From: an uncultured Rhodospirillales bacterium
GTDB lineage: Bacteria; Pseudomonadota; Alphaproteobacteria; JAWKYA01
Direction: 5' to 3'
NCBI GenBank assembly: GCA_964397465.1
Contig: CAYNIC010000002.1
Location: forward strand, 52,162 to 116,161
Length of the DNA stretch: 64,000 nt
The notes under the pieces were generated by a model. The model was given only the letters and a program-made list of their open reading frames with translations. It did no database searches and had not been told where the DNA came from. The first letter of the stretch is position 1. Each line of letters starts with the position of its first letter. The translations under genes were made by a program, and so were the position numbers. Below are positions 1 to 42,269 of this stretch, piece by piece.

Positions 1-665
1 ACGTCGGTTTTCACCCTCTCAGCATCGGATGTTTTGAGGCCGCCAAGGAAGCTTTCGGCAAAAGTATCAAGCCATGCCGCCAAGTCACCCGGTAAGGGGG
101 TAGGCCGTTTGAATAAAGTCAGTTGATCAATGTGAAAGCCAGCCTGATGGAGCAAGCTTTCCATCGTTGCTTCGTCGGGGAAAAACCAAGGATTGAGAGT
201 TGCGGCATTTACGTGATGCTGAGCTAAGGCGACGCTCAAAGCTTTAACAATAGCGGCAACGTTTCCATGACCGCCCATTTCGGCAACCAGACGTCCGCCG
301 GGCTTAAGAGCGCGCGCAACTCCGGCAAGCACGGGGCCGCTCGGCCCCATCCAATGCATAGCGGCATTGGAGATAACGGCGTCAAATTCTTGAGTAAAGG
401 TGAGTCTGCGCCCATCCATGATTCGGGCATCCAAGCCGCGTTTCTGTGCGGCGGCGACTTGCTCGGGGCTGGCATCAACGCCGACTATTTTGCCGCCGTG
501 GGCGGCAATCGCTTCCGTTAGGGCGCCATCACCGCATCCAAGATCAAGGATGCGTTCGCCCGGTTGAGGTGCCAACAAATCAATCAGCGGGCTTCCCAGG
601 TCGGCGACAAATCGAGCATTGCGGGCGTAGCGATCCGGATCCCAATGCTGCGTTAAGGACGACAC
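1..665 (-). CDS. Class I SAM-dependent methyltransferase (trans-aconitate methyltransferase/Tam-like). The C-terminus runs off the window edge; the putative start is a GTG at 663-665.
   Basis: Reverse-strand translation gives ...HWDPDRYARNARFVADLGSPLIDLLAPQPGERILDLGCGDGALTEAIAAHGGKIVGVDASPEQV... with the GxGxG SAM-binding motif I. There is no stop codon before position 1. Confidence 0.65.
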   Translation of the reverse strand, partial: MSSLTQHWDPDRYARNARFVADLGSPLIDLLAPQPGERILDLGCGDGALTEAIAAHGGKIVGVDASPEQVAAAQKRGLDARIMDGRRLTFTQEFDAVISNAAMHWMGPSGPVLAGVARALKPGGRLVAEMGGHGNVAAIVKALSVALAQHHVNAATLNPWFFPDEATMESLLHQAGFHIDQLTLFKRPTPLPGDLAAWLDTFAESFLGGLKTSDAERVKTD

Positions 666-672
666 GGAGCTT

Positions 673-1182
673 TTATTTTTTCGAAGGCGTGGCGCTGGTT
701 CCCGGCGCATCCTTCGGCTTCGCCTCGGCAGGCGTCACCGCAAGATTGATGATTTCACGAATGAGGCCCTCAAGATCGATGACATCGCGAGTCTGAGTAA
801 AAAATTCATCCGGTTTCAGAATTTCCTTATCGTTGCCGGGCTCAATCTTCACGTATTTGCCACCGATGATGCCGTCAGCGTTGATGGTGGCCTTGCTGTT
901 GCGGGGAAGTTTGTAGCGGCTGTCGATGGCCAGGGCCAAAATGGCATCGAAGGTTTCGTGATCAAGGTCTTCCTTGGCGACCGTGCCGACGACGACGCCG
1001 CCAATCCGCACCTCATCGCCAATATTGACGCCCTGCACCTTTTTGAATTTGGCATAAAGCGTATAGCGATTGGTTTGATCCACAGAGCGGGTGGAATAGG
1101 CAAAGGTCAAAAAGAGGAAAGCAGCAAGCAGCAGCAGACCACCGACGAGAATCTCCAGGTTTTCTTGTTTAATGCGCCGCAT
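673..1182 (-). CDS. MlaD/MCE-domain protein (outer-membrane lipid asymmetry maintenance), paralogue 1 of 3
   Basis: 169 aa with an N-terminal TM helix and an MCE fold (YTLYAKFKKVQGVNIGDEVRIGGVVVGTV...IEPGNDKEILKPDEF). [12 protein letters not shown] precedes the ATG. Confidence 0.75.
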   Translation of the reverse strand: MRRIKQENLEILVGGLLLLAAFLFLTFAYSTRSVDQTNRYTLYAKFKKVQGVNIGDEVRIGGVVVGTVAKEDLDHETFDAILALAIDSRYKLPRNSKATINADGIIGGKYVKIEPGNDKEILKPDEFFTQTRDVIDLEGLIREIINLAVTPAEAKPKDAPGTSATPSKK

Positions 1183-1230
1183 AGGGCCTCTCTCTAAATA
1201 TCATTCGCAGGTGGTCGTCATCATTCCAAA

Positions 1231-1680
1231 TTATAGTCCGGGACCGAAGGCAACGGCGGCGATCTCGTCTTCAAGCGACTTAACATCCTTGGCGTTAGCA
1301 AAGGTGCCGTCGGGCGGAACGGTCTCTTTGGACGTGCCGGGCTTCAATTCAATGTAGCCGCCGCCAAACATGCCGGCGCTCGACACGGTCACCTCTGTGT
1401 CGACGGGAAGTTTGTAGCGTTCGTCCACGGCGAAATCGAGAACGGCATTGTAATTTTCATAGTCGATGTACTGACGCAGGATGGTGCCGACACGGATGCC
1501 GCCGATTTGCACCTCGTTGCCGGGCTGAATGCCGCCGACTTTGTTAAACCGTGCGTGAACAACATAGGTTCGCGCTGTGGCTTCGGGCTTGCGCGATCCC
1601 GCCGCCAGCAAAACGATTGGCGTAGCGGCGATTATCAGAACAAGAAGACCGATGATGATTTCGATGGTTTCGCGGCGCAT
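1231..1680 (-). CDS. MlaD/MCE-domain protein, paralogue 2 of 3
   Basis: 149 aa with an N-terminal TM helix and an MCE domain (YVVHARFNKVGGIQPGNEVQIGGIRVGTI...ELKPGTSKETVPPDG). The architecture matches the two flanking ORFs. Confidence 0.75.
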   Translation of the reverse strand: MRRETIEIIIGLLVLIIAATPIVLLAAGSRKPEATARTYVVHARFNKVGGIQPGNEVQIGGIRVGTILRQYIDYENYNAVLDFAVDERYKLPVDTEVTVSSAGMFGGGYIELKPGTSKETVPPDGTFANAKDVKSLEDEIAAVAFGPGL

Positions 1681-1689
1681 CGTTACTCT

Positions 1690-2220
1690 CTATTTTTGAG
1701 GTTGCTTTTTAGCCGGCGCGGATTTCGCCCCCGGCGTAGTCGGGGCCACAGCTTCGGCGGGCTTCGGTGCACGGGAAGACTTGGCAAAGCCGACGATTTT
1801 TTCCACCAGCTCATCCAGAATCACCGAATCCTGCACGAAGGCGATTGCGTCACCGGGTTTTAAAACCTCGTCTTCGCCGCCGCCCGGATCAAGCGCGATA
1901 AATTTTCCGCTGAACAATCCGGCTGTGTTGATGGCGGCAAAGGCATCGCTGTGCAGTTTAATGCCCTGATTGATGTTCATAGTCATTTGAACCAGGTAAT
2001 CGGTCGGATCAAGCTCCAGGCTGGCAACCGATCCGACGCGCACCCCGAACATCCGGATTTCATCGCCGATCTTCACCCCGTCAACGCGGCTGAATTTTGC
2101 CTTGATGGTGTAGCCGCCGACGGCGCTCTCGTTGGTTTCGGTGTAGCCGAAAATCAAAAAAAACACGGCAACGGCAAGAACCGCGGCACCCAAAACTGTT
2201 TCGATAAGACTACGATGCAT
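1690..2220 (-). CDS. MlaD/MCE-domain protein, paralogue 3 of 3
   Basis: 176 aa with an N-terminal TM helix and an MCE domain (YTIKAKFSRVDGVKIGDEIRMFGVRVGSV...ALDPGGGEDEVLKPGD). An AAGGAG RBS precedes the ATG. There is an Ala/Pro/Lys-rich C-terminal tail. Confidence 0.75.
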   Translation of the reverse strand: MHRSLIETVLGAAVLAVAVFFLIFGYTETNESAVGGYTIKAKFSRVDGVKIGDEIRMFGVRVGSVASLELDPTDYLVQMTMNINQGIKLHSDAFAAINTAGLFSGKFIALDPGGGEDEVLKPGDAIAFVQDSVILDELVEKIVGFAKSSRAPKPAEAVAPTTPGAKSAPAKKQPQK

Positions 2221-2274
2221 GGGTTTAAAACGCTCCTTGGCCGATGTAAATTGGGCCGACTGGTTAAGTTCGCT

Positions 2275-2670
2275 TTAACCTGGGGGTGTCCAGGCTTCGT
2301 AATCACCGGTGGCCTTATCCCGGCGGCCCCCAGCCAGGCTATGTCCGGGGGGTAGGTAAGCGCCCGGAGTTCCGGTCGCATTTGGCCGGTGTTCCTTCTG
2401 CCAGAAACGGCGCCGCTTAGCCACAACTTCGGGGTCCGGCGGTAATTTTACTGTATAATGAAGCCAGGCATGCCATTCGGAAGGTACGCGGCTGGCTTCG
2501 GCCTCGCCATTATAGACGACCCAACGCCGGCGCCGACGTTGTTTGGAGGTGCCAAGATCAGGGTGACTTTCAACCCCGATGCCCCGTTGCTCGTAATAGC
2601 GGTTTCCGGTGCTATCGGTTCCGACGAGGCGGCCGTGGAGAAGTGTAAAAAGGCGGGTATAAAGGCTCAT
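2275..2670 (-). CDS. NADH:ubiquinone oxidoreductase subunit NDUFA12-like protein
   Basis: The internal ATG at 2668-2670 gives MSLYTRLFTLLHGRLVGTDSTGNRYYEQ...WHAWLHYT, the typical bacterial NDUFA12-family signature. It lies next to MlaD, as is common in alphaproteobacteria. Confidence 0.7.
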   Translation of the reverse strand: MSLYTRLFTLLHGRLVGTDSTGNRYYEQRGIGVESHPDLGTSKQRRRRRWVVYNGEAEASRVPSEWHAWLHYTVKLPPDPEVVAKRRRFWQKEHRPNATGTPGAYLPPGHSLAGGRRDKATGDYEAWTPPG

Positions 2671-3024
2671 AAAATTATCACGCAATAGGTCCTGGATTGC
2701 GATCGTCCGCCAGGGCGGCGCGCCCGCGGCGGAAGCGGGCCGCACTATGGCACTATGCGCCGGGTTGCGTCCAGTGCACTGGCTCATAAATAAGCTAGAG
2801 TTTGCAAGAAAAGGCGCCTTTCTCGGTTCTATTTTTAGGAACCCATTTTTAGCTTAAATCCTTGTAAAGCCCCTAAATATAGCAGATTTCGCAAAAACCT
2901 TCCTGCTTCTAGTGACATCCCCTACATTCTGTGGCAAGAATACCTAGAGCCTACCGGATATTGCTTTTTTCGAGCGAATCTCGGCGGTTTTGCTGCGACT
3001 CGGGTACAAGGGGACTCTCCCGCC

Positions 3025-6000
3025 ATGCGTATGGCGCGCCAATTCACGAAAAAAGATCAATCGCCTTACGCAGGAATGTCTTTCCGCGAGGCACTGAGCG
3101 AGATTCGCACCCCCGACGGAGCCATCGTTTTCCGTCAGGACAAGGTGACTGTGCCCGAGACCTGGAGCCAGGTTGCGATCGATATCTTGGTGCAAAAATA
3201 CCTTAGAAAAGCAGGCGTTCCAAAGGCCCTGTGCCGGGTACCTGAAGACGGCATACCTGAATGGCTGCAACGCGCAACGGCAGATGAAGCGGCGCTGGCG
3301 GATGTGCCCGAGGCCGATCGTCTTGGCGGTGAAACCGATGCGCGCCAGGTCTTCGATCGCCTGGCCGGTACCTGGACCTATTGGGGCTGGAAGGGCGGTT
3401 ACTTCGATAGCGCTGAGGATGCCCGGGCCTATTACGATGAAATGCGGTTCATGCTGGTTCACCAGATGGCGGCGCCCAATTCACCACAATGGTTCAACAC
3501 CGGCCTTCATTGGGCCTATGGAATAGACGGTCCCTCCCAGGGCCATTGGTATACGGATTTCACCTCGGGCGCGGTGGTTGAATCCACCTCGGCCTACGTC
3601 CACCCCCAGCCTCATGCCTGCTTTATCCTGTCGGTTGCCGACGACTTGGTCGGCCAGGGCGGCATTATGGACCTGTGGCAACGCGAGGCGCGCCTGTTCA
3701 AATACGGCAGCGGCACCGGCTCCAATTTTTCTCCTTTAAGAGCGGAGGGCGAATCTCTCTCGGGCGGCGGCGTAACCTCCGGCGTCATGAGCTTTCTGAA
3801 AATCGGCGATCAAGCTGCCGGTGCGATCAAATCCGGCGGCGTGACCCGCCGTGCCGCCAAGATGGCGATTCTCGACATTGATCATCCGGACATCGAGTCT
3901 TTTATCGAGTGGAAAACCGTTGAAGAGCAAAAAGTGGCGGCCCTCGTTGCGGGATCGCGCCTTACAGAACGTCATGTAAATGCCATTTTGCAGGCCTGCC
4001 GCAGCGACGCGCCGGAAGCCCTGGCCGATGATGCCGTCCGTCTTGATCCTGAGCAGAATAAGTTTTTAGCCAAGGCGGTCCGCGCCGCACGCCGCGCTTT
4101 TTTGCCGGAGACCTTAATTCAGCGGGCCTTGCGCTTGGCCGCCGAAGGACAAACCTCGGCGCGGCTGCCTCTTTATGACACCGATTGGGATGGCGAAGCC
4201 TATCGTAGCGTCAGTGGACAAAATGCCAATAACTCCATTCGCGTTACCGAAGAGTTTTTGGTCGCCGTCGAGCGTGGTGGTGATTGGGCCTTAATCCGGC
4301 GGACCGATGGCGCCACCGCAAAAACGGTTAAGGCGCGCGCCTTATGGGATCGCATAGCCACCGCGGCCTGGACGTCGGCGGATCCTGGTGTGCAATTCGA
4401 TACCACGATTAATTCGTGGCACACCTGCCCGGAAAGCGGCCGCATCAAGGCGTCCAATCCGTGCTCTGAATATATGTTTTTGGATGATACGGCTTGTAAT
4501 TTAGCCTCGCTTAACCTGATGGCGTTTCGTCGTGACGACGGCAATTTAGATGTCGATGCCTTGCGGCATGCGATAAGACTTTGGACGGTGACGCTCGAGA
4601 TTTCGGTGCTAATGGCGCAATATCCGTCGGCGCTGATCGCGCGGCGTTCTTATGAATTTCGCACCCTCGGTCTTGGCTTCGCCAACCTGGGGGCGTTGAT
4701 CATGTCCCTGGGTCATTCTTATGACAGTGATGCCGGCCGGTCGCTTGCCGGTGCGATAACCGCATTTATGACCGGAACCGCTTATACGGTTTCTGCGGAG
4801 ATGGCGGAAGAATTAGGCGCCTTTCCGGGCTTCGCCGCCAATCGTGACGCAATGCTGCGGGTGATGCGTAATCACCAACGCGCGGCGCGAGGTGAGACGA
4901 CGGGTTATGAAGGATTGTCGGTGCCGCCCGTGCCGTTAATTCAGCATGCGCAGGTGGACCAGCGTCTGCATCAGGCAGCGGTTGCGGCATGGAACGAAGC
5001 CGTAGAGCAGGGCGCAAGCCACGGCTATCGCAATGCTCAGGTTACGGCGATCGCACCTACCGGGACTATCGGCCTGGTGATGGATTGCGACACCACCGGG
5101 ATTGAGCCCGACTTTGCCTTGGTCAAGTTTAAGAAATTAGCCGGCGGGGGATATTTCCGGATTATTAACCGTACGGTTCCCTTGGCTCTGGAGGCTTTGG
5201 GTTACGATCCGGAAACGGCCAACCACATTGTCGGTTACGCCATCGGCTACGGCACCTTGAAAGATGCACCGGGCGTGAATCACGAAAAGCTGCGGTTGCG
5301 GGGATTTGACGATGCGGCGCTCACCAAGGTGGAACGCGCCTTAGAAACAGCTTTTGATATTCGGTTTGCCTTCAACAAATGGACTCTCGGCGCCGACTTC
5401 TGCACCCGCGTGCTCAAGTTGGATGGAGATGATCTTGACGATCTCTCCTTCGACATGTTGGACGCCTTGGGATTTACCCGGGACGAGATCGACGCGGCGA
5501 ATATCCACTGCTGCGGCGCGATGACCTTGGAAGGGGCGCCGGATCTGCAGCCGAAACACTTGGCGACGTTCGACTGTGCAACCCCTTGTGGGCGAAAGGG
5601 AACACGATCTCTCTCGTGGGAAAGTCATTTGCGGATGATGGCGGCGGTTCAGCCGTTTGTTTCCGGCGCCATCTCCAAAACTGTTAACATGCCGAACACG
5701 GCATCCATCGCCGACTGCCAGAATGTTTACACCCTTGCCTGGCGATTGGGGCTGAAGTCGGTGGCTCTTTATCGCGATGGATGCAAACTATCGCAACCCT
5801 TGGCATCGGTCTTTACCGATCATGCCGACGACGCTTTCGACGAGGAAGACGCGGATATTCGGCCCAGTCTTCTCGAGCAGGTTATGGCGGCGCCGGTGCC
5901 CGAGCGGGCGGCTGTCGTTACCGAGCGGATTATCGAACGGATCGTCGAACGTGCAACGGATCGCCGGCGACTTCCCCATCGCCGCAAAGGCTATACGCAA

Positions 6001-6771
6001 AAGGCGACGGTTGGCGGTCATAAGGTTTATTTGCGAACCGGCGAATACGAAGACGGCCGGATCGGCGAAATCTTTATCGACATGCATAAAGAGGGCGCCG
6101 CCTTCCGCTCGCTGATGAATAATTTTGCCATCGCCATCTCGATTGGACTGCAATACGGCGTTCCGCTGGAAGAGTTCGTCGAGGCCTTTACCTTTACCCG
6201 GTTTGAGCCGGCGGGCCCGGTCCAGGGCAACGATGTTATCAAGATGGCCACCAGTGTTCTCGATTATATTTTCCGGGAACTGGCGATCAGTTACTTGGGG
6301 CGGACCGACTTAGCCCACGCCGAACCGGCCGATCTCCTGCCCGATGCCTTGGGTAAGAAGAACGCGCCGGCCGAGGGTCTGGATCGCCCTGCTGAGGCGG
6401 CCGAGCAACAGCTTGATACCCGAGAATTGGTTCGTCGGGTGGCCTCGACCGGCTATGTCCGGGCCAATCTTCTGGTTTTACAAGGCGGGCTTGCCGCGAC
6501 GGGGACGGAAAACCATCGGTCGATGAGTGAAGCGCAGACGGTTGCCGACGCCTTCACCCCCGACCCGGCGGCTGAAGCGGTGTTCTCGCCGTCCCCTGCC
6601 ATTGCCGAAACCGCTGTGCGGGAAGTTAACCGCCAGCTCGACCGTATCCGGGAAGCCCGGCTTAAGGGATTCGAGGGCGATCCGTGCCCGGAATGCGCCA
6701 ATTTTACCCTCCTGCGTAGCGGTACCTGTCTTAAGTGCGATAGCTGCGGAGGAACAAGCGGCTGTTCTTAA
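3025..6771 (+). CDS. nrdJ: Class II (adenosylcobalamin-dependent) ribonucleoside-diphosphate reductase NrdJ
   Basis: 1248 aa with conserved RNR class II blocks ([28 protein letters not shown]) and a C-terminal [22 protein letters not shown] zinc-ribbon tail. Confidence 0.9.
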
Positions 6772-31109: not shown

Positions 31110-32120
31110 CTACTTACAGCCCAGGGACGTTGATTCCCGCTGCGCCCGTTGTTTTACCGTGGCAGGGGCATCCGGATAATCGGTGCCAAGACGACCCAGC
31201 GACCGGCAGGCTTGCTGCGTCTGACCAAGTTTACCTAAAGACATTCCCAACTTCAGGAGATTGTCCGGGCCCTTGGTGTTTTTCTTGTACTTTTGATAGC
31301 CGGTTAGGAAGGCGGAGGCGGCCTCTTCGTATTGGCCTCGCACGTAATGGGTCTCGCCCAACCAATATTGAGCGTTGCCGGCAAGTTCAGTATCGGGATG
31401 CTTCGTTACGAATTCAGCCAAGGCAACCTGGGCGTCGTCGTATTCCCGCGCCTGTAAAAGCGAATAGGCAAAATCGTACTGATCTTTGGGCGATCCCGCA
31501 GGCAAGACATTGCCGGGTTTGGCGGCGGCGGTCGGTTTGATGGGGCCGGGTGTGGACGCGGGCGGTGCGGCAGGGGGATTAGCCGTCGCTGCATTCAGCT
31601 CGCGTTGTGGCAAGGTGCCGAGCACGCCACGGGTACGGTTTTGTTCGGGCGCGGCGCTGGCCGTTGCCTCGGCAGCGGTGCGGGCGACCGGCGCTGCGGC
31701 GGCTGGCGGAGTTGCTGGCGTTGCGTTAAGGGGCGGCGGCGCGATCGCTGCTGTTTGACCGGTAGGTGATGGGGCGGATGATGATGGTGCCGGTGCCGCC
31801 GCCATGGGCGTTCCCCCGCCGCCATGCTCGATCTTTTGCAGGCGGAATTCCAAATCTTCGGTCATTTTATCGAGGCGCTGTTCCATCCGTTTAAGCCGGA
31901 AGTTCATTTCTTCCATGCTGCCGGTGAGACGCGAAACTTCATTTTCAAGAGCGGAGATGCGCACCTGTTGGCGGGCCATGGCGGGGCCATCAGCTTCGAC
32001 CCCTTGCGCCCAACTGGGAGAAGGTACGGCGCCGAAGAGGATTGCCATCACACCGGCGAGAAGCAAACCTTTACCATAAAGTCGTCCAGGGTGCGTCAGG
32101 ACAAGGATGTTTTTACGCAT
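31110..32120 (-). CDS. cpoB: Tol-Pal system protein CpoB/YbgF
   Basis: A signal peptide, a coiled-coil, an Ala/Pro-rich linker, and C-terminal TPR repeats (AQYWLGETHYVRGQYEEAASAF). Confidence 0.75.
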   Translation of the reverse strand: MRKNILVLTHPGRLYGKGLLLAGVMAILFGAVPSPSWAQGVEADGPAMARQQVRISALENEVSRLTGSMEEMNFRLKRMEQRLDKMTEDLEFRLQKIEHGGGGTPMAAAPAPSSSAPSPTGQTAAIAPPPLNATPATPPAAAAPVARTAAEATASAAPEQNRTRGVLGTLPQRELNAATANPPAAPPASTPGPIKPTAAAKPGNVLPAGSPKDQYDFAYSLLQAREYDDAQVALAEFVTKHPDTELAGNAQYWLGETHYVRGQYEEAASAFLTGYQKYKKNTKGPDNLLKLGMSLGKLGQTQQACRSLGRLGTDYPDAPATVKQRAQRESTSLGCK

Positions 32121-32297
32121 AATGATCTCACGCTATCTTTTGAGTCGCTCATCAAGGGCAAGCGCAGAGAGCCGCCAAGAGTATGTATAGGTTGAGGGAA
32201 CGGCAAAAATAAGGCGCCCGCCCTGTGGTTGGCTCTGAATTCAGAGCTCCAGGGCGGGCGCCTCCTTGTCTAAATGCAACGTGTTAATTACGACTCG

Positions 32298-32825
32298 TTA
32301 GCCGCCGCTGACCAAGGTAACGGCCCGGCGGTTTTGCGACCAAGCCGCTTCATTGGATCCGACCACCTCGGGCTGTTCCTTACCGAAGGAAATGATCGAT
32401 ACCCGATTGGGTTCGACCCCCAGCGAGATGAGGTAGTCTTTAACCGACTGAGCGCGCCGCTCGCCGAGAGCCAGGTTATATTCTCGGGTGCCGCGTTCGT
32501 CGGCGTGACCCTGAATGGTAACTGATACGCCGGCCCGGGTTTTCAACCAAGCCGCTTGAGCGCTGACAGTTTTGCGGGCTTCCGGAGAAAGGTCATATTG
32601 GTCCAGGCCGAAAAATACACGGTCACCAACATCCCGTTGCAGCTCCATCTGCAATCCGCCGCTGGAGACGCCGCCAGGACCGGTGCCTGTGCCGGTGCCG
32701 CTGCCAGGAAGGCCGGGAGGGCCTCCCGTTCCGCCGCCACCAAGGTCTGTCACGTCTTCTGGTGCGGATCCGCAAGCAGCAAGCATAAGGGCCGCCGCGC
32801 AAGCGCAAACAATTTTAAGCCGCAT
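32298..32825 (-). CDS. pal: Peptidoglycan-associated lipoprotein Pal (OmpA family)
   Basis: MRLKIVCACAAALMLAAC lipobox and an OmpA C-terminal domain (TIQGHADERGTREYNLALGERRAQSV). Confidence 0.85.
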   Translation of the reverse strand: MRLKIVCACAAALMLAACGSAPEDVTDLGGGGTGGPPGLPGSGTGTGTGPGGVSSGGLQMELQRDVGDRVFFGLDQYDLSPEARKTVSAQAAWLKTRAGVSVTIQGHADERGTREYNLALGERRAQSVKDYLISLGVEPNRVSIISFGKEQPEVVGSNEAAWSQNRRAVTLVSGG

Positions 32826-32991
32826 CACTGATATCTCCGAGCGTCTGGGTAGGTGAATGGAATTGAGGAGCCGATCCCAATATCCGATTTCGATCCTATT
32901 TTTATACATGTTACGTGACTCCGTGACAATGGGGTTCTGAGGTTATGATCAATTTTTTCAGTAAGATGACCCCAGATGTTTATGTTTGAGT

Positions 32992-34353
32992 TTAAGGAAT
33001 GAGGGGCGACCAAGCCGGATCAGAGGCTTCGAGCGGCGTTACGATTTCCCGCAAGTTCTGCCCGGAAAGGTCGATGCTGTAGAGTTTAGTGGTGCCTGAA
33101 ACGCTTTGTCCGCCTTGGGTTTGCCGGAAAAACATCAAGACGCGGCCGTTGGGCGACCAGGTCGGGCCTTCATCTAAAAAGCTTTCGGTCAGGAGGCGCT
33201 CCTTGCTGCCGTCGGGTTTCATGACGCCAATATAAAATTTACCACCTTGCATCTTGGTAAAGGCGATCAAGTCGCCGCGAGGCGACCAAACCGGGGTCGC
33301 ATAGCGGCCTTGGCCAAAACTGATTCGCTGAACATTCGAGCCGTCGGCGTTCATGACATAAAGCTGCTGAGCCCCGCCGCGATCAGAGTTAAACACGATC
33401 TGGGCATTGGTATCCGAATAGGACGGCGAGGTATCGATCGCGGGATGGTTGGTCAATTGCTGAACCCGCCGTGTCTGCAGATCCATGGCGTAGATTTCAG
33501 AATTGCCGTCATTGGACATGCTGAGGACGATTTTCTTGCCGTCATTTGAGAACCGGGGGGCAAAGGTCATGCCGGGGAATTCACCAACGACTTCGCGCTG
33601 ACCGCTATCGATGTTGAACAGATAGACCCGCGGCTTATCCGCAAAGTAAGACAAATAGGTGATTTCCTGGGTCGACGGCGAGAACCGGGGGGTCAATACC
33701 AGGGAAGACCCGTCGGTTAAGAACTTATGATTGGCGCCATCTTGATCCATGATGGCCAAGCGCTTGATGCGGCGGTTACCGGGGCCGCTTTCCGCCACGT
33801 AAACGATACGCGTATCGAAGTAGCCCTTTTCGCCCGTGACCCGCTCGTAGATCGCATCGGAGATGATATGGGCGATGCGCCGCCAGTTCTGCGGCACCGT
33901 ATAGTACTTACGGCCAGCCATGGGCTGGCCTTGGAAAATATCCCACAGACGGAATTCAACCCGTAATCGGCCGTCGGGCTCCATCGCGGCGACCCCTGAA
34001 ACCAGGGCTTGGGCGTTGATGGTTTTCCAATCCTGAAAGCGCGGTTGGGCTTGGGCCAAATCAGCCGGCGATTGCAGAAAAGCCCGTGGATCGACGGCGC
34101 GGAACAGGCCTGATCTTTCTAAGTCGGCGCTGACGACGGCGGCAATTTGCTTGCCGTAATTCGAGGCATCAGCGGCGCCGCCGAAAAAGTCGGTGATGGC
34201 GATCTGAATGGGATTGGGAACGGGACTTTCGATATCTACGCGGACTTCAGCCCGGGCAGAAGTGAAGATGACGGCGCTGGAAAACAATCCAATAACGGCG
34301 GCAAGAGCAAGCTTGCTGCCAACGAGAGGTAGCCGATATCGCGTGAACATCAT
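32992..34353 (-). CDS. tolB: Tol-Pal system beta-propeller protein TolB
   Basis: 453 aa. A signal peptide, a TolB N-terminal domain, and WD-like propeller repeats. Confidence 0.9.
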
Positions 34354-35270
34354 TACATACAGTCCGCTTCTTTAGGGGTGAAGGCGACGATAAACCGGTC
34401 AAATTGAGCGTATTTATCTTTGGGGATAGGCAAGGGGCTGGCTTGATTAACGGCACGAATCGCACTGTCAACAAAGGCTGTCAGGGCGACATTATCGCCC
34501 GATCCAACCGCACGCTCGACCTTCACCGAGGTGACAGTTCCATCGGGCAAAACTTGAACCGCCAACTCTGCCGCCATTTGGGAAAAACCCTTAAGGCCGC
34601 AGTTGGCATTCCATTTTTCTTTGATGACTTGGCGCAAGGCGTCCAACTCGCTGCCCGACAGGGTTGGGCCAAGCGGCGCGATGGCGGCGGTGCGGGTCGC
34701 CGGCTCCGGCTGCGGTTTCGCCGCAGGATCGATCGGGGTATTCATCGCCGTTTGTTTGGACTTTGGATCAACTTGGGGGGTTGGTTGTTGCGGCTTGGTC
34801 TTCAAACGGTTTTGCAGAAAGTTTTCGATATCGGCAAAGTCGTCCTTCTTCTGATCCTTTTTAGGCTCGGGCTTTTTCGCATCTTGCTTGGGTTGATCCT
34901 TGGGCTTGGGCGGTTGCGCCGGCAAAGCCATTTTCTCAGGCACGGGATCTGGTTTTGGCGGTAAAGGTTCAGGCTTAGGCGGGGCGACAGCGACCTTCGG
35001 CTCCGGCGGTGGCGGCGGTGCCGCCTCGGCAGGGGCTGGTGCGGGAGCCGGCGGGGGTGGCGGGACGGGCTGAGCCTCCGCCTTAGGCGGTTCCGGTTTC
35101 GGCGGCGGCGGCGCGACCTCGGGGGTCTGCGAGACGGGACCGATTTCAACCAAGCTGACAGCGATAGTCGGTTGCGGCTCGATCTCGGGACGCAGATGTG
35201 GCAACCCGACCACCGCAAGGACAAGAAGCGTGGCGTGTAGGGCGCTGGAGGCAACCAGAGCTTTACGCAT
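34353..35270 (-). CDS. tolA: Cell envelope integrity protein TolA
   Basis: An N-terminal TM helix, a long Pro/Ala/Lys/Glu-rich domain II, and a C-terminal TolA III-like domain. It sits in the position between tolR and tolB. Confidence 0.7.
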
Positions 35271-35275
35271 GACGG

Positions 35276-35872
35276 TTAACGTGTTGAATTTTGCCCCGGG
35301 ATAGCCGGAGGCAAAGGAATACCGGTAGGAGCGCTACTTGCCGGAGGGACGCCGGCAACACCAGGTGAGGCGGGCGTTGGCGCGGGCCGTGCGGTGGCCG
35401 GCGCCGCGGTACGAGCGCGCGGTGCCGCAGTGGATTTGACTCCGCTCTCGCCCGGGGCGGAAATCAACGCGATCTTGCGGAAACCGGCACGGGTGACCAG
35501 ACCCATCACCTCAAGAACGCGGCCGTAATCAATTCCTTTATCGCCCCGAACATAAATCTGCGTGTCGGGATTTTGATTGGTGATGGCATCAAGCCGCGGC
35601 ACCAAGGCGTCAATGGCCGTCTCGCTTTCCTGCAGGAAAATGCGGCCGTCGCGCGAGATGCTGATTTCGAGCGGCTCAACCTGTTGATTAATGGGAGGTG
35701 CTGAGGTTTCGGGAAGTTCGATTTCGACCCCGACAGTCAGTAAAGGCGCGGCGACCATGAAGACGATCAGAAGGACCAACATCACGTCGACAAAGGGCGT
35801 AACGTTGATATCGCTCATGCGATTATAACGAAAATTCTTACCTTTTGACCGGCTGAGAAGCGCGCCTGCCAT
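35276..35872 (-). CDS. tolR: Tol-Pal system protein TolR (ExbD family) with an extended Ala/Pro-rich C-terminal tail
   Basis: INVTPFVDVMLVLLIVFMVAAPLL TM/ExbD core, then a ~55 aa low-complexity tail. Confidence 0.8.
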   Translation of the reverse strand: MAGALLSRSKGKNFRYNRMSDINVTPFVDVMLVLLIVFMVAAPLLTVGVEIELPETSAPPINQQVEPLEISISRDGRIFLQESETAIDALVPRLDAITNQNPDTQIYVRGDKGIDYGRVLEVMGLVTRAGFRKIALISAPGESGVKSTAAPRARTAAPATARPAPTPASPGVAGVPPASSAPTGIPLPPAIPGQNSTR

Positions 35873-35877
35873 AGGAT

Positions 35878-36606
35878 CTACGCTCCTTCCAATTGACGGG
35901 AAAGAATAGCGCTGAATTCCCCGGCGAAGCCTTCCATGCGATTGGCGTAACGGCCCAAATCGGTTGAGAGTTTATTATAGGCAATAACCGCTGGAATCGC
36001 TGCGACCAGGCCAAGGGCTGTCGCAAACAAGGCCTCGGCAATGCCCGGTGCCACCACGGCAAGAGAGGTGTTTTTGGACGCTGCGATGGCTTGGAAACTG
36101 TTCATAATTCCCCAAACGGTGCCGAAGAGCCCAATGAATGGAGCCGTCGAGCCGACCGAGGCGAGAAAGCTCATATAGCGCTCGAGACGCTCCATTTCGC
36201 GGCCAAGAGTAACGCTCATGACCCGCTCGATTCGTTGCTGAAGATTAGCCCGCATATTGCTTTCGGCCGATAGGCCGCGCTCGGTTGAGCGCCGCCACTC
36301 CCGCATAGCGGCGGCAAATATAGCGGTCATGGGGTCGAGGGGGCGGCGCCCCACCCGGTCATAAAGGTCTTCAAGGGAACTGCCGGACCAAAAAGCCTCT
36401 TCGAATTTGTTGGCGCGGGCATTCAGCCGGCGCATCCGGACGGTTTTCTCGAAAATGATGGCCCAGCACCATACCGAGGCCATCATCAGCATGGTCATGA
36501 CAATTTTAACGATAATATCGGCCTGCATAAACAGACCGATGATGGAAAGATCGTGAGGCGCGGCCGTTGCGGCAAGCGTCGCCGTTTGGACAAGGGTTTG
36601 ATTCAT
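35878..36606 (-). CDS. tolQ: Tol-Pal system protein TolQ (MotA/ExbB family)
   Basis: 242 aa, 3 TM, and a typical ExbB C-terminal block. Confidence 0.85.
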   Translation of the reverse strand: MNQTLVQTATLAATAAPHDLSIIGLFMQADIIVKIVMTMLMMASVWCWAIIFEKTVRMRRLNARANKFEEAFWSGSSLEDLYDRVGRRPLDPMTAIFAAAMREWRRSTERGLSAESNMRANLQQRIERVMSVTLGREMERLERYMSFLASVGSTAPFIGLFGTVWGIMNSFQAIAASKNTSLAVVAPGIAEALFATALGLVAAIPAVIAYNKLSTDLGRYANRMEGFAGEFSAILSRQLEGA

Positions 36607-37253: not shown

Positions 37254-38321
37254 TTAGGTGGTACCATCAGGATCGAAAGATTGGCCCATAAGCTGCAGTT
37301 GCTCCGGTCCGCGCGGCGGCGGCGTCAAGCCCAGATGCCGGTAGCCCTTTTCGCCCAGCATGCGGCCCCGGGGTGTTCGTTGGACGAGTCCGATCTGAAT
37401 CAAATAGGGCTCGATAACGTCTTCCAGCATATCGCGAGGTTCTGCCAGGGCGGCGGCAAGGGTTTCGACGCCGACCGGACCCCCATTGTAATGATCGGCC
37501 ATGCAGGAAAGATACCGCCGATCCACACCATCCAAGCCCAGAGTATCCACTTCAAGACGGGTCAAGGCGTGATCGGCAACTTTGCGATCCACCGTTTTGG
37601 TGCCGGCCACGGCGGCAAAGTCGCGGACTCGGCGTAAAAGACGCCCGGCGATCCGCGGGGTCCCGCGGGCTCTCTGGGCGATTTCCTTGGCGCCGTCATG
37701 TGTAATGACCAATCCTAAGACCTTGGCGGCACGAAGAACAACGGCTTCAAGTTCTTCGGGCGTATAAAAATTTAAACGTAAAGGAATGCCGAAACGATCG
37801 CGTAAGGGAGTCGTCAATAATCCCATACGGGTTGTGGCGCCGACCAGAGTAAAGTTTGGCAGATCAATCTTCACCGACCGGGCGGCCGGCCCCTCACCGA
37901 TAATAAGGTCCAGTTGAAAATCTTCCATCGCCGGATAAAGAATTTCCTCGACCTGAGGCGGCAGACGGTGAATTTCGTCGATGAACAAAACATCGCGCGG
38001 TTCAAGATTAGTCAGAAGGGCGGCCAGATCACCGGGCTTGCTGATGACTGGTCCGGAGGTGGCGCGAAACCCAACGCTCAATTCCCGGGCGACGATCTGC
38101 GCCAAGGTTGTTTTTCCGAGGCCTGGCGGGCCGAATAACAAAACATGATCCATCGCTTCGCTGCGGCCGCGCGCCGCTTCAACGAAGATGCGCAAATTTT
38201 CACGCACCGACCGTTGGCCGATAAAATCATCAAGAGTTTGTGGCCGCAAATGCGCTTCAACGCTGTCTTCTTCGACCACGCTTTGTTGGATTAGGCGATC
38301 TTCGGGAAGGGTGGCCGTCAT
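37254..38321 (-). CDS. ruvB: Holliday junction branch migration helicase RuvB
   Basis: 355 aa with Walker [12 protein letters not shown] and high conservation throughout. Confidence 0.95.
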
Positions 38322-38944
38322 GCTGCCAACTCACGCAAAGCCGCCTTGATAAGGGCGTCGACTTGCGCCTTGTCGCCAAGCTTGCTGGCGGCACGGGTAG
38401 CCGCACCAAAAGCTTCGCTTCGCCCATATCCCAGATTAACTAAGGCGGAGACGGCATCTTGCAGCGGTAAAGTTTCAGGAGAGTCTGTGCTGCCTGCTTT
38501 GCGATCTTGTGATAGCGCAACAGTTGTGCCGCCCAAGGCAAGGGCGCCGGTCTTGTCTTTGAGTTCCGTGACAAGTCGCGCCGCCAGTTTGGGGCCGACG
38601 CCATCGGCGCGAGTTAATAAAGCTTTGTCCTGTGCGGCTATGGCCTGCATAAGATCATTGGGAGAAAGCGTAGATAAGATTGCCAGGGCAACCTTGGCGC
38701 CGACGCCTTGAACCGTGGTCAAAAGACGAAACCAGTCTTTTTCGGCGGTCTCGGTAAATCCATAAAGATGGATATGATCTTCACGGACATGGGTCTCAAT
38801 ATGCAGTTGCGTGCCTTCGCCGCGGCTGGGCATGCGCGCCAAGGTTCTGGCCGAACAGAAGACCAAATATCCGACCCCGCCACAATCAATGATGACGTGG
38901 CCGGTGCCGCTTTCCGCAAAGATACCTTTCAGCCGCGCGATCAT
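38318..38944 (-). CDS. ruvA: Holliday junction DNA helicase RuvA
   Basis: MIARLKGIF...GVGYLV N-terminus. ATGA overlap with the ruvC stop. Confidence 0.9.
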
Positions 38945-39447
38945 CGCTGCACCATGCTGAGGCTTGTTTTGCGATTGGCGGCGCTTGAATGGTGGGCATG
39001 ACAAATGGCGATGGCCAAGGCATCCGCCGCATCGGGGCTTTCGACCAACGAGCCGGGCAGCAATCGGGCGACCATCGACTGAACCTGAACCTTATCCGCG
39101 TGGCCGGTTCCCACGACAGTCTTCTTGATCGTGGTCGCTGCGTACTCCGATACGGTCAACCCGGCCTGCGCCGGCGCCAGCAAAACAACACCGCGCGCTT
39201 GGCCAAGTTTCAGCGTGCTGCCGGGATTGCGGTTAAGAAAAGTCTCTTCCACAGCCGCTTCATCAGGTTTGTAGGTATCGATAATCGTCAACAACCCGGT
39301 GTAGATCGCCGACAGCCGTGCCGCCAGGGAGTGATTGGCGGTCGAGCGAACCGTGCCTGAAGCGACAAAGATCAGCCGATTACCCTGGGTTTCGACGATG
39401 CCCCAGCCTGTCGCCTTAAGTCCGGGATCAAGGCCCAGCAATCGCAT
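38941..39447 (-). CDS. ruvC: Crossover junction endodeoxyribonuclease RuvC
   Basis: [20 protein letters not shown]-terminus with the catalytic Asp. Confidence 0.9.
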
Positions 39448-40317: not shown

Positions 40318-41154
40318 TCAGTCAGCGGCAAAAGCTTGCGCATAAGGCGGGTGTTGCTGGCTTAAGCATCCGCCCAATCGGATGGGATTTATTCTGACGG
40401 CAAGACCGGTTTTCGAGTCCGTCTCGATGAACACGCCGCATAAAGTGGCGTCACCCTCTGCCGGCGCAGGGCGATCGGTTGGCATTTTAGACCGAAAACG
40501 AGCAACAGGGACGCTTTTTTTCATCCCGATGACGCTGTCATAGTCGCCACACATGCCGGCATCACTTTGAAAGGCGGTGCCGTGCGGAAGAAGCCGGCCG
40601 TCGGCGGAAGGAACATGGGTGTGGGTACCGATCACCAGCGAAACCCGGCCATCCAAATGATGAGCAAGGGCCTGCTTCTCGCTGGTCGCTTCGGCATGGA
40701 TGTCGACTACGATCGCCGCCATGTCCTTACCTAACGGATGATCATGGAGGATCTGATCCACAGCGGCGAAGGGGTCTTCCAAAGGCTCCATGAAAAGACG
40801 TCCCATGACGTTAATAACAAGAACCTGCTGACCTTGAGGCGTGGTGCGAATAACCCACCCGCTCCCCGGCGTGCCGTTGGGAAAGTTCGCCGGCCGCAAT
40901 AAACGTGCGTCATCGGCGATATAAGCGATTGTTTCGCGCTGGTCCCAAACGTGATTACCCGTGGTTACGACATCGACCCCGGCCGCATAAAATTCGGCGC
41001 AGATGGCGCTGGTGATGCCAAAGCCATGAGCGGCGTTTTCGCCGTTAACAATCACAAGATCGAGATTGAGATTTTTGCGAAGCCGCGGAATTTCATTGGT
41101 GACGACAGTGCGACCTGACCGGCCCATGACGTCGCCGCAGAATAAAAGTCTCAT
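40318..41154 (-). CDS. TIGR00282/YmdB-like metallophosphoesterase
   Basis: MRLLFCGDVMGRSGR...GNHVWDQ calcineurin-like phosphoesterase motifs. Confidence 0.75.
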   Translation of the reverse strand: MRLLFCGDVMGRSGRTVVTNEIPRLRKNLNLDLVIVNGENAAHGFGITSAICAEFYAAGVDVVTTGNHVWDQRETIAYIADDARLLRPANFPNGTPGSGWVIRTTPQGQQVLVINVMGRLFMEPLEDPFAAVDQILHDHPLGKDMAAIVVDIHAEATSEKQALAHHLDGRVSLVIGTHTHVPSADGRLLPHGTAFQSDAGMCGDYDSVIGMKKSVPVARFRSKMPTDRPAPAEGDATLCGVFIETDSKTGLAVRINPIRLGGCLSQQHPPYAQAFAAD

Positions 41155-41738
41155 GCGCTGTCGTCCGGATGAATAATTCCATTTTCTGTGGCTATGTAAT
41201 CAAGGCGCACATCCGTGGATTCGAGAGGAATAGCGGAAATCTCTTGCGCGGCGAAGGCGATTCCGATGGCTAAGAAACCAGGATTTTGCTGCCGTAAAAC
41301 AGGAATGGAGCGATCGTAAAACCCACCGCCATAGCCTAGACGGTATCCGCGCCGGTCGAAGGCCAGTTGCGGAACAAGAAGAATGGAAGGAATTTGCGGT
41401 TCCGCGTCGGGACAAGGCTCAAAGGTGCCAAATGCGCCGGCGCGCATTGTTTCGCCGGGCTGCCACGCGCGAAAGACGAGCGGCGCTTCGGCGCGTTCCA
41501 CGGCGGGCATCGCCAACCGTTGACCCCGAAGATGAAGCGCCTGAAGGAGTGGCCGGATGTCGATTTCAGAACTGATCGGCCAGTAGCCGGCGATGCAAAC
41601 GTCGGGCTGGAGAAGATTGCTTTTCAATAAATGATCGCGCAGCGCCAAGGCTTTGGTTTCGCGGCCGACTACGGCCGCGCGTTGTCTTGTGGTTTCACCG
41701 CGGAGGCGGCGTTTGAAATCGGTGATGTTTTCTGTCAT
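41151..41738 (-). CDS. ygfA: 5-formyltetrahydrofolate cyclo-ligase (ygfA)
   Basis: 195 aa with an ...IAGYWPISSEIDIRPLL motif. Confidence 0.8.
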   Translation of the reverse strand: MTENITDFKRRLRGETTRQRAAVVGRETKALALRDHLLKSNLLQPDVCIAGYWPISSEIDIRPLLQALHLRGQRLAMPAVERAEAPLVFRAWQPGETMRAGAFGTFEPCPDAEPQIPSILLVPQLAFDRRGYRLGYGGGFYDRSIPVLRQQNPGFLAIGIAFAAQEISAIPLESTDVRLDYIATENGIIHPDDSA

Positions 41739-41747
41739 GCAATCCTA

Positions 41748-41908
41748 AAAGAGTGCCGCGCCAGCCGTTGACCGTTTCTATCCACTTGGGCCTGCCATAG
41801 CAGGTGGGCGCCATGTACCAAAGCCAAGGCTCTGGCAGGGACAGCTCCCATAGTGTGGAAATTGGCCCCAGGGAATGAGTGGTCTGACGTACTGGGCAGC
41901 ACCAAGAC
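41748..41908 (-). ncRNA. ssrS: Candidate 6S RNA (SsrS)
   Basis: A 174-nt non-coding gap in the conserved zapA-ssrS-ygfA position. In the minus-strand transcript the 5' GUGCUGCC can pair with the 3' GGCGCGGCAC to form a closing stem, as expected for 6S. No ORF. Confidence 0.45.
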
Positions 41909-41912
41909 TAAT

Positions 41913-42269
41913 CTAGGTGGTCGACAAGCGATCGGCAATCGCTTCGATGCGCCCCGCTAACTTTTCTATGCCATCGCACAGCTTGTCGGTATCCGGCAAA
42001 GAGGGTGCCGGCGGCGCAGGTGTGTTCGCCGCATGCCGCAGCTTTTCTTTAAGGGTCGCTATTTCGGTTTTTGTATCACCAAGTTCATCAGCGATGACGA
42101 GACTTGCCATAACAAGAAGCCGCGTATGATCGATCTGGCCGATGCTCGAAACCAGCTGCGTTACTCGCTTATCCACCAGTTCCGCAAGGGTAAGGAGATG
42201 AGGTTCTTCCCCATCATCGCAGGCAATTCGGTAACTTTTGCCGTTTATGACGACGGATACCTGGGCCAT
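41913..42269 (-). CDS. zapA: Cell division protein ZapA
   Basis: MAQVSVVINGKSYRIACDDGEEPHLLTLAELVDKRV... N-terminal ZapA domain plus a coiled-coil. 118 aa. Confidence 0.75.
   Translation of the reverse strand: MAQVSVVINGKSYRIACDDGEEPHLLTLAELVDKRVTQLVSSIGQIDHTRLLVMASLVIADELGDTKTEIATLKEKLRHAANTPAPPAPSLPDTDKLCDGIEKLAGRIEAIADRLSTT

Follow-up and report, generated by a model that had tools for sequence, protein, structure and literature searches.

We analysed a 64,000-nt stretch of contig CAYNIC010000002.1 from an uncultured Rhodospirillales bacterium (hereafter the window), near the start of which three tandem genes for MlaD-type MCE proteins, here called MlaD-A, MlaD-B and MlaD-C, lie beside an NDUFA12-like gene. 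Transporters of the MCE type carry lipids from one bacterial membrane to another, and their textbook homohexamer is MlaD. The original prediction for this stretch, made by a model from the letters alone, had reported three consecutive MCE genes of 169, 149 and 176 amino acids (aa), and both the coordinates and the lengths proved exact. The genes of the locus are as follows.

2275..2670, minus strand: NDUFA12-like gene, 131 aa from the ATG at 2670; the open reading frame (ORF) is readable back to 2787.
1690..2220, minus strand: MlaD-A, 176 aa; canonical single-copy-type transmembrane (TM) anchor, MCE domain, C-terminal helix FVQDSVILDELVEKIVGFAK, Pro/Ala/Lys-rich tail.
1231..1680, minus strand: MlaD-B, 149 aa; divergent proline-containing TM helix, MCE domain, short invariant C-terminal helix SLEDEIAAVAFG.
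673..1182, minus strand: MlaD-C, 169 aa; divergent TM helix, MCE domain, C-terminal helix TRDVIDLEGLIREIINLAV, Pro/Ala/Lys-rich tail.
1..665, minus strand: 5' part of a class I S-adenosylmethionine (SAM)-dependent methyltransferase gene, starting at GTG 665 and running off the window; 251 aa on the parent contig.

Transcription on the minus strand follows the order NDUFA12-like, MlaD-A, MlaD-B, MlaD-C and methyltransferase, with intergenic gaps of 54, 9, 48 and 7 nt (the NDUFA12-like gene ends 54 nt upstream of MlaD-A), and no terminator-like site was found on this strand within positions 1..3100. Purine-rich motifs resembling ribosome-binding sites (RBS) precede the start codons of MlaD-A (AAGGAG), MlaD-B (GAGAG) and MlaD-C (GAGAGAGG). 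Beyond the window start, the parent contig, which is 397 kb long and comes from JGI metagenome 3300013121, continues with the methyltransferase, then a DUF2155 gene (PF09923), a RidA-family gene and a small CigR-like gene. The NDUFA12-like gene was identified by NF006040 (157.4 bits against a cut-off of 135, with the match running from residue 40 of the long ORF) and by PF05071 (86.7 bits), and its homology begins at the ATG at 2670. NDUFA12 is the first gene of a conserved alphaproteobacterial NDUFA12-MlaD-DUF2155 operon, and the present locus has the same make-up, with the NDUFA12-like gene immediately upstream of the MlaD genes and DUF2155 downstream on the same strand, a layout common to most of the 80 loci described below.

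All three proteins passed the MCE family model PF02470 (MlaD-A 72.2, MlaD-B 58.9 and MlaD-C 62.2 bits; gathering score 25.1). Against TIGR04430, the whole-protein MlaD equivalog model, they scored 117.1, 105.6 and 134.1 bits, respectively; none reached the cut-off of 135, with MlaD-C short by about 1 bit, and the alignments spanned the full length (profile positions 2-144 of 146). At the N-terminal end each protein carries a single 19-residue stretch of strong hydrophobicity (Kyte-Doolittle 2.4-3.0), which together with the RBS-like motifs bears out the claim that every gene has its own RBS and TM anchor. Pairwise BLASTP identity was 28% for A-B, 35% for A-C and 40% for B-C, in agreement with the clear divergence that had been asserted. 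A profile built from A, B and C matched the full MlaD chains, comprising TM helix, MCE domain and C-terminal helix, of MlaFEDB structures (7ch8, E 5e-25; 6zy2/6xbd, E about 6e-23) and also Mce1 chains B-F of 8fed. The AlphaFold2 model of MlaD-B (pLDDT 78.7) predicts a TM helix at residues 3-28, beta-barrel strands at 38-131 and a C-terminal helix at 136-145, and a Foldseek search with this model returned the MlaD chains of MlaFEDB as best matches (E 1e-11; TM-score 0.67-0.81). MlaD-A and MlaD-C align end to end with E. coli and P. aeruginosa MlaD.

The pore-loop motifs aligned to GLLGEQY of E. coli are GLFSGKF (A), GMFGGGY (B) and GIIGGKY (C); the loops are hydrophobic, and their pore-lining function is assigned by reference to published structures of MlaD. 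In A, B and C alike, a linker of about 10 residues joins the TM helix to the first beta-strand. MlaD-B, the rarest type, ends at its C-terminal helix without a tail. All three have the type I MCE architecture, with a single N-terminal TM helix, one seven-stranded MCE barrel, a short C-terminal helix and no further domain; an extended linker or needle-like C-terminal domain was found in none of them. They do not form a multi-MCE protein of the PqiB/LetB kind, being encoded by three separate genes, each with a start codon, an RBS-like motif and a TM helix. These results show that A, B and C are complete, genuine MlaD-type MCE proteins.

The copy number of MlaD was compared across the 80 best NDUFA12 loci from bacteria represented by one genome per species, with the NDUFA12 protein as anchor and the MlaD genes counted by hidden Markov model (HMM). 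One MlaD gene was present in 55 of the 80 loci (Acetobacteraceae, Nisaea, Pelagibius, Elioraea, Stella and others), and two tandem genes in a fixed order were present in 19 (Magnetospirillum, Paramagnetospirillum, Phaeospirillum, Telmatospirillum and metagenome-assembled genomes (MAGs) of Rhodospirillaceae; for example L016, L020, L023, L026, L035, L062 and L075). Three genes were found in a single locus, L009, which is the closest relative (NDUFA12 82% identical). The remaining loci comprised one cut after a first-type gene, one with a split gene, two without MlaD and one cut right after NDUFA12. The NDUFA12-MlaD(n)-DUF2155 operon was kept throughout the sampled loci. Two loci, L024 and L042, have an NDUFA12-like gene without an adjacent MlaD, and in L024 DUF2155 directly follows NDUFA12.

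Other metagenomes contributed two more triple arrays (L092 and L093), found by a protein search with MlaD-B combined with contig look-ups; in both, A-B-C stand beside NDUFA12 and B is 52-53% identical. The MlaD-B type is rare: it had 7 matches in an index of 5.8 billion proteins, and an exhaustive HMMER search over 1.84 billion representatives gave 5 at E ≤ 1e-30, two of them in L092 and L093. A metagenome scan with MlaD-B returned three loci at 97% identity, all of the same species, and no new lineages. The triple array is kept throughout a small uncultured clade (the window, L009, L092 and L093), a larger group next to this clade has the double array, and one gene is found most often. The statement of the original prediction that most alphaproteobacteria carry one copy therefore held roughly (55/80), leaving out the 19 loci with two, while the simple contrast of single versus triple did not hold, because two copies are standard in Magnetospirillum-type lineages and the triple array appears to be the double with a further duplication of gene 2. 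Its proposal to examine neighbourhood conservation gave a divided answer: the operon is kept in relatives and the triple array within its own narrow clade, but a single gene remains the most frequent arrangement. It had also allowed that triplicated genes might prove common and already characterised here, which was not the case, as no characterisation of the arrays was present in the literature searched.

The history of the array was reconstructed from a neighbour-joining tree of 100 MlaD sequences (about 148 columns, 500 bootstraps). Bootstrap support was 83% for B+C, 71% for B+C together with gene 2 of the two-copy loci, and 60% for A with gene 1; a lineage-specific triplication, with A+B+C monophyletic, was rejected at 1%. 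The HMM built from gene 2 outscored that from gene 1 for both B (126 vs 93 bits) and C (138.8 vs 118.5 bits), and the scores of the gene 1, gene 2 and single-copy models were ambiguous for A (141.9/140.5/145.1 bits). At the start of the C-terminal helix, the motif [KR]D[VF]x[SD][LI]E is common to gene 2, B and C, and the single-copy-like motif [TV]QD..[LIV].[ED]L is kept in gene 1 and A. These comparisons indicate that B and C are sisters of each other and daughters of gene 2 of the two-copy lineages; A is probably the counterpart of gene 1, with moderate support that is less secure than for B and C. The array thus appears to be the product of an old gene 1/gene 2 duplication, common to Magnetospirillum-type Rhodospirillaceae, after which gene 2 split into B and C, and not of a recent triplication.

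Rates of substitution were measured against the strain-level relative L091, because synonymous sites were saturated against L009 (dN 0.10-0.13). The ratio of nonsynonymous to synonymous substitution (dN/dS) was 0.041 for A, 0.020 for B, 0.044 for C and 0.020 for NDUFA12, and all three paralogues are under strong purifying selection. Each orthologue group has paralogue-specific motifs that are near-invariant across four lineages, the C-terminal helices being the most striking. In the A group the helix reads FVQDSVILDELV[EQ]KIV[GS]FAK; in the B group it reads KDV[KA]SLEDEIAAVAFG, with the end of the protein directly after it; and in the C group it reads TRDVI[DE]LE[GK]L[IV]REIINLAV. Identity of this helix was 64-81% among members of an orthologue group in the triple loci and 53-56% among the gene 1 or the gene 2 proteins of two-copy species, as against 19-29% between the paralogues of one locus.

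The most telling comparison was that of the TM helices. A TM-helix profile was built from the 55 single-copy proteins only, and every paralogue was scored with it. Exactly one paralogue had a single-copy-like score in 23 of 23 multi-copy loci (28.8-45.5 bits; single-copy proteins 29-48), and the remaining paralogues of these loci scored at most 17 bits. MlaD-A, at 35.7 bits, falls inside the single-copy range. The canonical TM helix lies on gene 2 in the two-copy loci and on gene 1 (A) in the four triple loci. Across the 19 two-copy species, the mean identity of the TM helix was 82% for gene 2 and 40% for gene 1, and that of the MCE domain was 61% and 55%, respectively.

Together with the layout of the operon, these patterns suggest that A, B and C may form a hetero-oligomeric MCE ring, a reading to which we give about an even chance. 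The three proteins would be subunits of one inner-membrane MlaD-type MCE hexamer, most simply A2B2C2, which would act as the periplasmic lipid-binding and tunnel part of a Mla-like phospholipid transporter and whose subunits would share out the labour of the ancestral homohexamer. The ancestral TM helix, found on one paralogue per genome, presumably gives the specific contact with an MlaE-like permease; the anchors of the other paralogues would be relaxed or altered, and the central helical bundle would be composed of unlike C-terminal helices. In the MlaFEDB complex of E. coli, the two-fold MlaE dimer is contacted in three non-equivalent ways by six identical MlaD TM helices: two helices pack on the MlaE core, and the other four just cross the IF1 helices and are otherwise isolated in lipid (PMC7790496). 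One canonical helix per genome is the pattern predicted if only some of the ring subunits need a specific anchor, and C-terminal helices that are conserved yet paralogue-specific are explained by a bundle of unlike helices. The hetero-oligomeric ring that the original prediction had suggested has gained indirect support in this way, from gene order, purifying selection, the one canonical TM helix per locus and the paralogue-specific C-terminal helices. The order A-B-C is kept in L009, L092 and L093, and in the window the three genes run in the same direction, 9 and 48 nt apart, with no terminator-like site in between. A precedent is provided by the tandem mce paralogues that give the Mce1A-F heterohexamer (PDB 8fed; PMC9882608).

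Several points weigh against a mixed ring. Every paralogue keeps all the elements needed for a homohexamer and, to our knowledge, the characterised proteobacterial MlaD rings are all homohexamers. Because the canonical anchor is on gene 1 in the triple loci and on gene 2 in the double loci, the proposed division of labour is not one inherited state. The orthology of A with gene 1 is moderate, given its bootstrap value and ambiguous HMM scores, and the trees are neighbour-joining trees on a short alignment. Finally, when the Mla partners were looked for, as had been proposed, no gene of the MlaE, MlaF, MlaB, MlaC or MlaA families was found in the 64-kb window or the 8 kb beyond it; the search covered the ABC ATPase signature over all window ORFs, and families among the called genes of L001/L002 and ten further window ORFs.

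A more specific form of the mixed ring, which we regard as unlikely, is an ordered A2B2C2 ring (a 1-2-2 pattern in two-gene species) in which each paralogue sits at one of the three positions relative to MlaE. The paralogue with the canonical anchor would provide the A/D helices on the MlaE core, and B and C, as the split of one gene, would provide the IF1-contacting B/E and C/F helices. Such a ring would resolve the 6:2 symmetry mismatch and would stand midway between the proteobacterial homohexamer and the asymmetric Mce1A-F.

The alternative that survives best is that the three proteins form three separate homohexamers, which is possible although we consider it doubtful. The paralogue with the canonical TM helix (A, or gene 2 in two-copy species) would then be the ordinary MlaFE-bound ring, and the others would be rings with different partners or lipids, or free membrane-anchored lipid-transfer stations, which corresponds to the "substrate specialisation" that had been named beside the mixed ring. 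Each paralogue has a TM helix, a barrel, a hydrophobic pore loop and a C-terminal helix and could therefore homo-oligomerise; the pore-loop residues differ (LF, MF and II), the three MCE systems of E. coli run as separate homohexamers (PMC5561183; PMC12436622), and paralogue-specific C-terminal helices fit three different homo-bundles equally well. However, characterised independent MCE systems have their own permease genes and separate operons (PMC5561183), whereas here three MCE genes share one operon without a permease. The TM helix of gene 1 is less conserved than its MCE domain (40% vs 55% identity), which speaks against a membrane partner specific to gene 1, and the one operon of tandem single-MCE genes that has been characterised encodes a heterohexamer (8fed).

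Stacking of three homohexamers, which would lengthen the periplasmic tunnel as the three MCE rings do in PqiB, is very improbable. Multi-MCE proteins do stack their domains (PqiB and LetB; PMC5561183, PMC12436622), and MlaD-type proteins with two or three MCE domains behind one TM helix exist (P0131, P0132), one of them at this same locus. Each paralogue here, however, has its own TM helix and a tether of about 10 residues, so that all three MCE domains would be held in one plane at the inner-membrane surface, and none carries the extended linker or needle-like domain looked for above. That the array consists of redundant or dosage duplicates, or of copies heading for loss, without structural meaning is scarcely credible. 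In favour of this reading, genes are often duplicated in tandem by neutral events, and MCE has undergone repeated multiplication here (gene 1 and gene 2, B and C, and the fused P0132 with its two domains). The data on selection and conservation, however, largely refute it: the paralogues are old, being 28-40% identical, no copy is broken in any of four lineages whose B orthologues have diverged to 52% identity, each has a dN/dS of 0.02-0.044 and paralogue-specific invariant motifs, and the two-copy state is kept in fixed order in 19 species.

The array was next set beside known systems. It resembles MlaD of MlaFEDB (E. coli 6XBD/6ZY2, P. aeruginosa 7CH8 and A. baumannii 6Z5U) in size, architecture, profile homology and fold. 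MlaD of MlaFEDB is a homohexamer from one gene within the mlaFEDCB operon, whereas here three diverged genes stand with NDUFA12, a methyltransferase and DUF2155, and the Mla pathway arrangement of MlaD with MlaFE, MlaB, MlaC and MlaA is absent from the same 64 kb and 8 kb. The NDUFA12-mlaD-DUF2155 operon has been described in its single-mlaD form by Isom et al. 2017 (PMC5561183) and in Thioclava electrotropha (PMC9226611); the locus and order are the same, with one mlaD there and three plus an inserted methyltransferase here. The literature searched held no experimental characterisation of the function of this operon in any organism. The Mce1/Mce4 heterohexamers (8FED; PMC9882608) likewise come from tandem MCE paralogues in one operon, a feature that the present array has. 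They comprise six paralogues with a long C-terminal helical needle and tail and adjacent YrbEA/B permeases, in contrast to three short MlaD-type proteins of 149-176 aa with one short helix near the end, in an operon without a permease gene. The two-gene arrays of Magnetospirillum and others have the same operon and order and likewise one canonical and one relaxed anchor; they differ in having two genes instead of three and in carrying the canonical TM helix on gene 2 instead of gene 1.

The linkage of NDUFA12 with MlaD (PMC5561183) and the principle of the heterohexamer in Actinobacteria are already known, and the array varies a known system in an interesting way without amounting to one of a new kind. 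In an incomplete literature collection, neither tandem MlaD paralogues at this locus nor the Magnetospirillum-type two-copy state nor the one-canonical-anchor pattern was found described, and nothing relevant was found in the literature searched on heterohexameric MlaD or on MlaD in Magnetospirillum or Rhodospirillum. If short proteobacterial MlaD-type proteins did form mixed rings, building MCE rings from unlike subunits would be open to evolution in general and not peculiar to Actinobacteria, and the two- and three-gene arrays would serve as natural experiments on the separate jobs of the anchors, pore loops and C-terminal helices in a ring. The two-gene form occurs in genetically tractable Magnetospirillum, so the hypothesis is directly testable there. 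The array also draws notice to the widespread NDUFA12-MlaD-DUF2155 operon of the alphaproteobacteria, the lineage that gave rise to mitochondria.

The methyltransferase was recognised by Methyltransf_11/25 (66.9 bits) and reached no specific NCBIfam family, the best being Tam (trans-aconitate methyltransferase; 75.9 vs 320 bits). A lipid N-methyltransferase (PmtA-like) role was weighed but drew no support from the data. Its GTG at 665 lies 7 nt after the MlaD-C stop codon, exactly the spacing originally predicted; the upstream ATG chosen by other gene callers overlaps MlaD-C by 38 nt. Orthologues with 50-59% identity (E 1e-77 to 1e-95) stand between MlaD and DUF2155 in L013, L017, L022, L031, L049, L080 and L085, spread over several distant lineages; Pelagibius/Kiloniellales and two other MAGs with a single MlaD have the gene in this slot. 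Because orthologues occupy the same slot in Pelagibius/Kiloniellales and other lineages, the methyltransferase is a real, recurrent operon member, and it is almost certainly co-transcribed with the MlaD genes, as had been suggested. Its presence in single-MlaD loci means that it is unrelated to MlaD copy number.

DUF2155, encoded at L001:12322-12792 just outside the window start, is the last gene of the operon almost everywhere and has more than 7,800 homologues. The protein has a signal peptide, a confidently modelled all-beta core and the invariant motifs FxGWMFASSP and EHPVYD, and the PDB offered no convincing structural relative. It could be a partner of the MlaD ring in the periplasm.

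Also observed were MlaD-type proteins of 270-391 aa in which two or three MCE domains in tandem follow a single TM helix, every domain with its own short C-terminal helix.

L097:4001-4822, and also L098 and L099: multi-MCE MlaD-type proteins (P0128, P0129 and P0131-P0134).

P0132 has two MCE domains and occupies the NDUFA12-[MlaD]-DUF2155 slot, adjoining an enlarged DUF2155 protein of 311 aa, and P0128 is encoded upstream of an MlaC gene (L100). A fusion of gene 1 with gene 2 was ruled out for P0132, both of whose domains are single-copy-like and 49% identical to each other; by this comparison it represents an independent internal duplication, through which MCE was multiplied in fused form at this locus.

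Divergently from the NDUFA12-MlaD operon, across an intergenic region of 350 nt, the plus strand encodes a class II (B12-type) ribonucleotide reductase of 1248 aa (3025-6771), with Ribonuc_red_2_N, Ribonuc_red_lgC and TSCPD domains on the parent contig; in L097 a TSCPD-domain protein is likewise divergent, upstream of NDUFA12. A 6S RNA (SsrS) gene was found on the minus strand at 41749-41905 (Rfam RF00013, 79.5 bits), between a small ORF at 41913-42269 and an ORF at 41151-41738. The minus strand also carries a run of co-oriented ORFs at 31110-36606 whose order, sizes and N-termini resemble the Tol-Pal envelope cluster; the family scan covered one of these ORFs (31110-32120), which matched the TolA_bind_tri and TPR families (CpoB/YbgF-like). 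A RuvB-like ORF (Walker A) and neighbouring ORFs follow this putative Tol-Pal run at 37254-39004. The run would represent another envelope-maintenance system in the window, unlinked to the MlaD operon.

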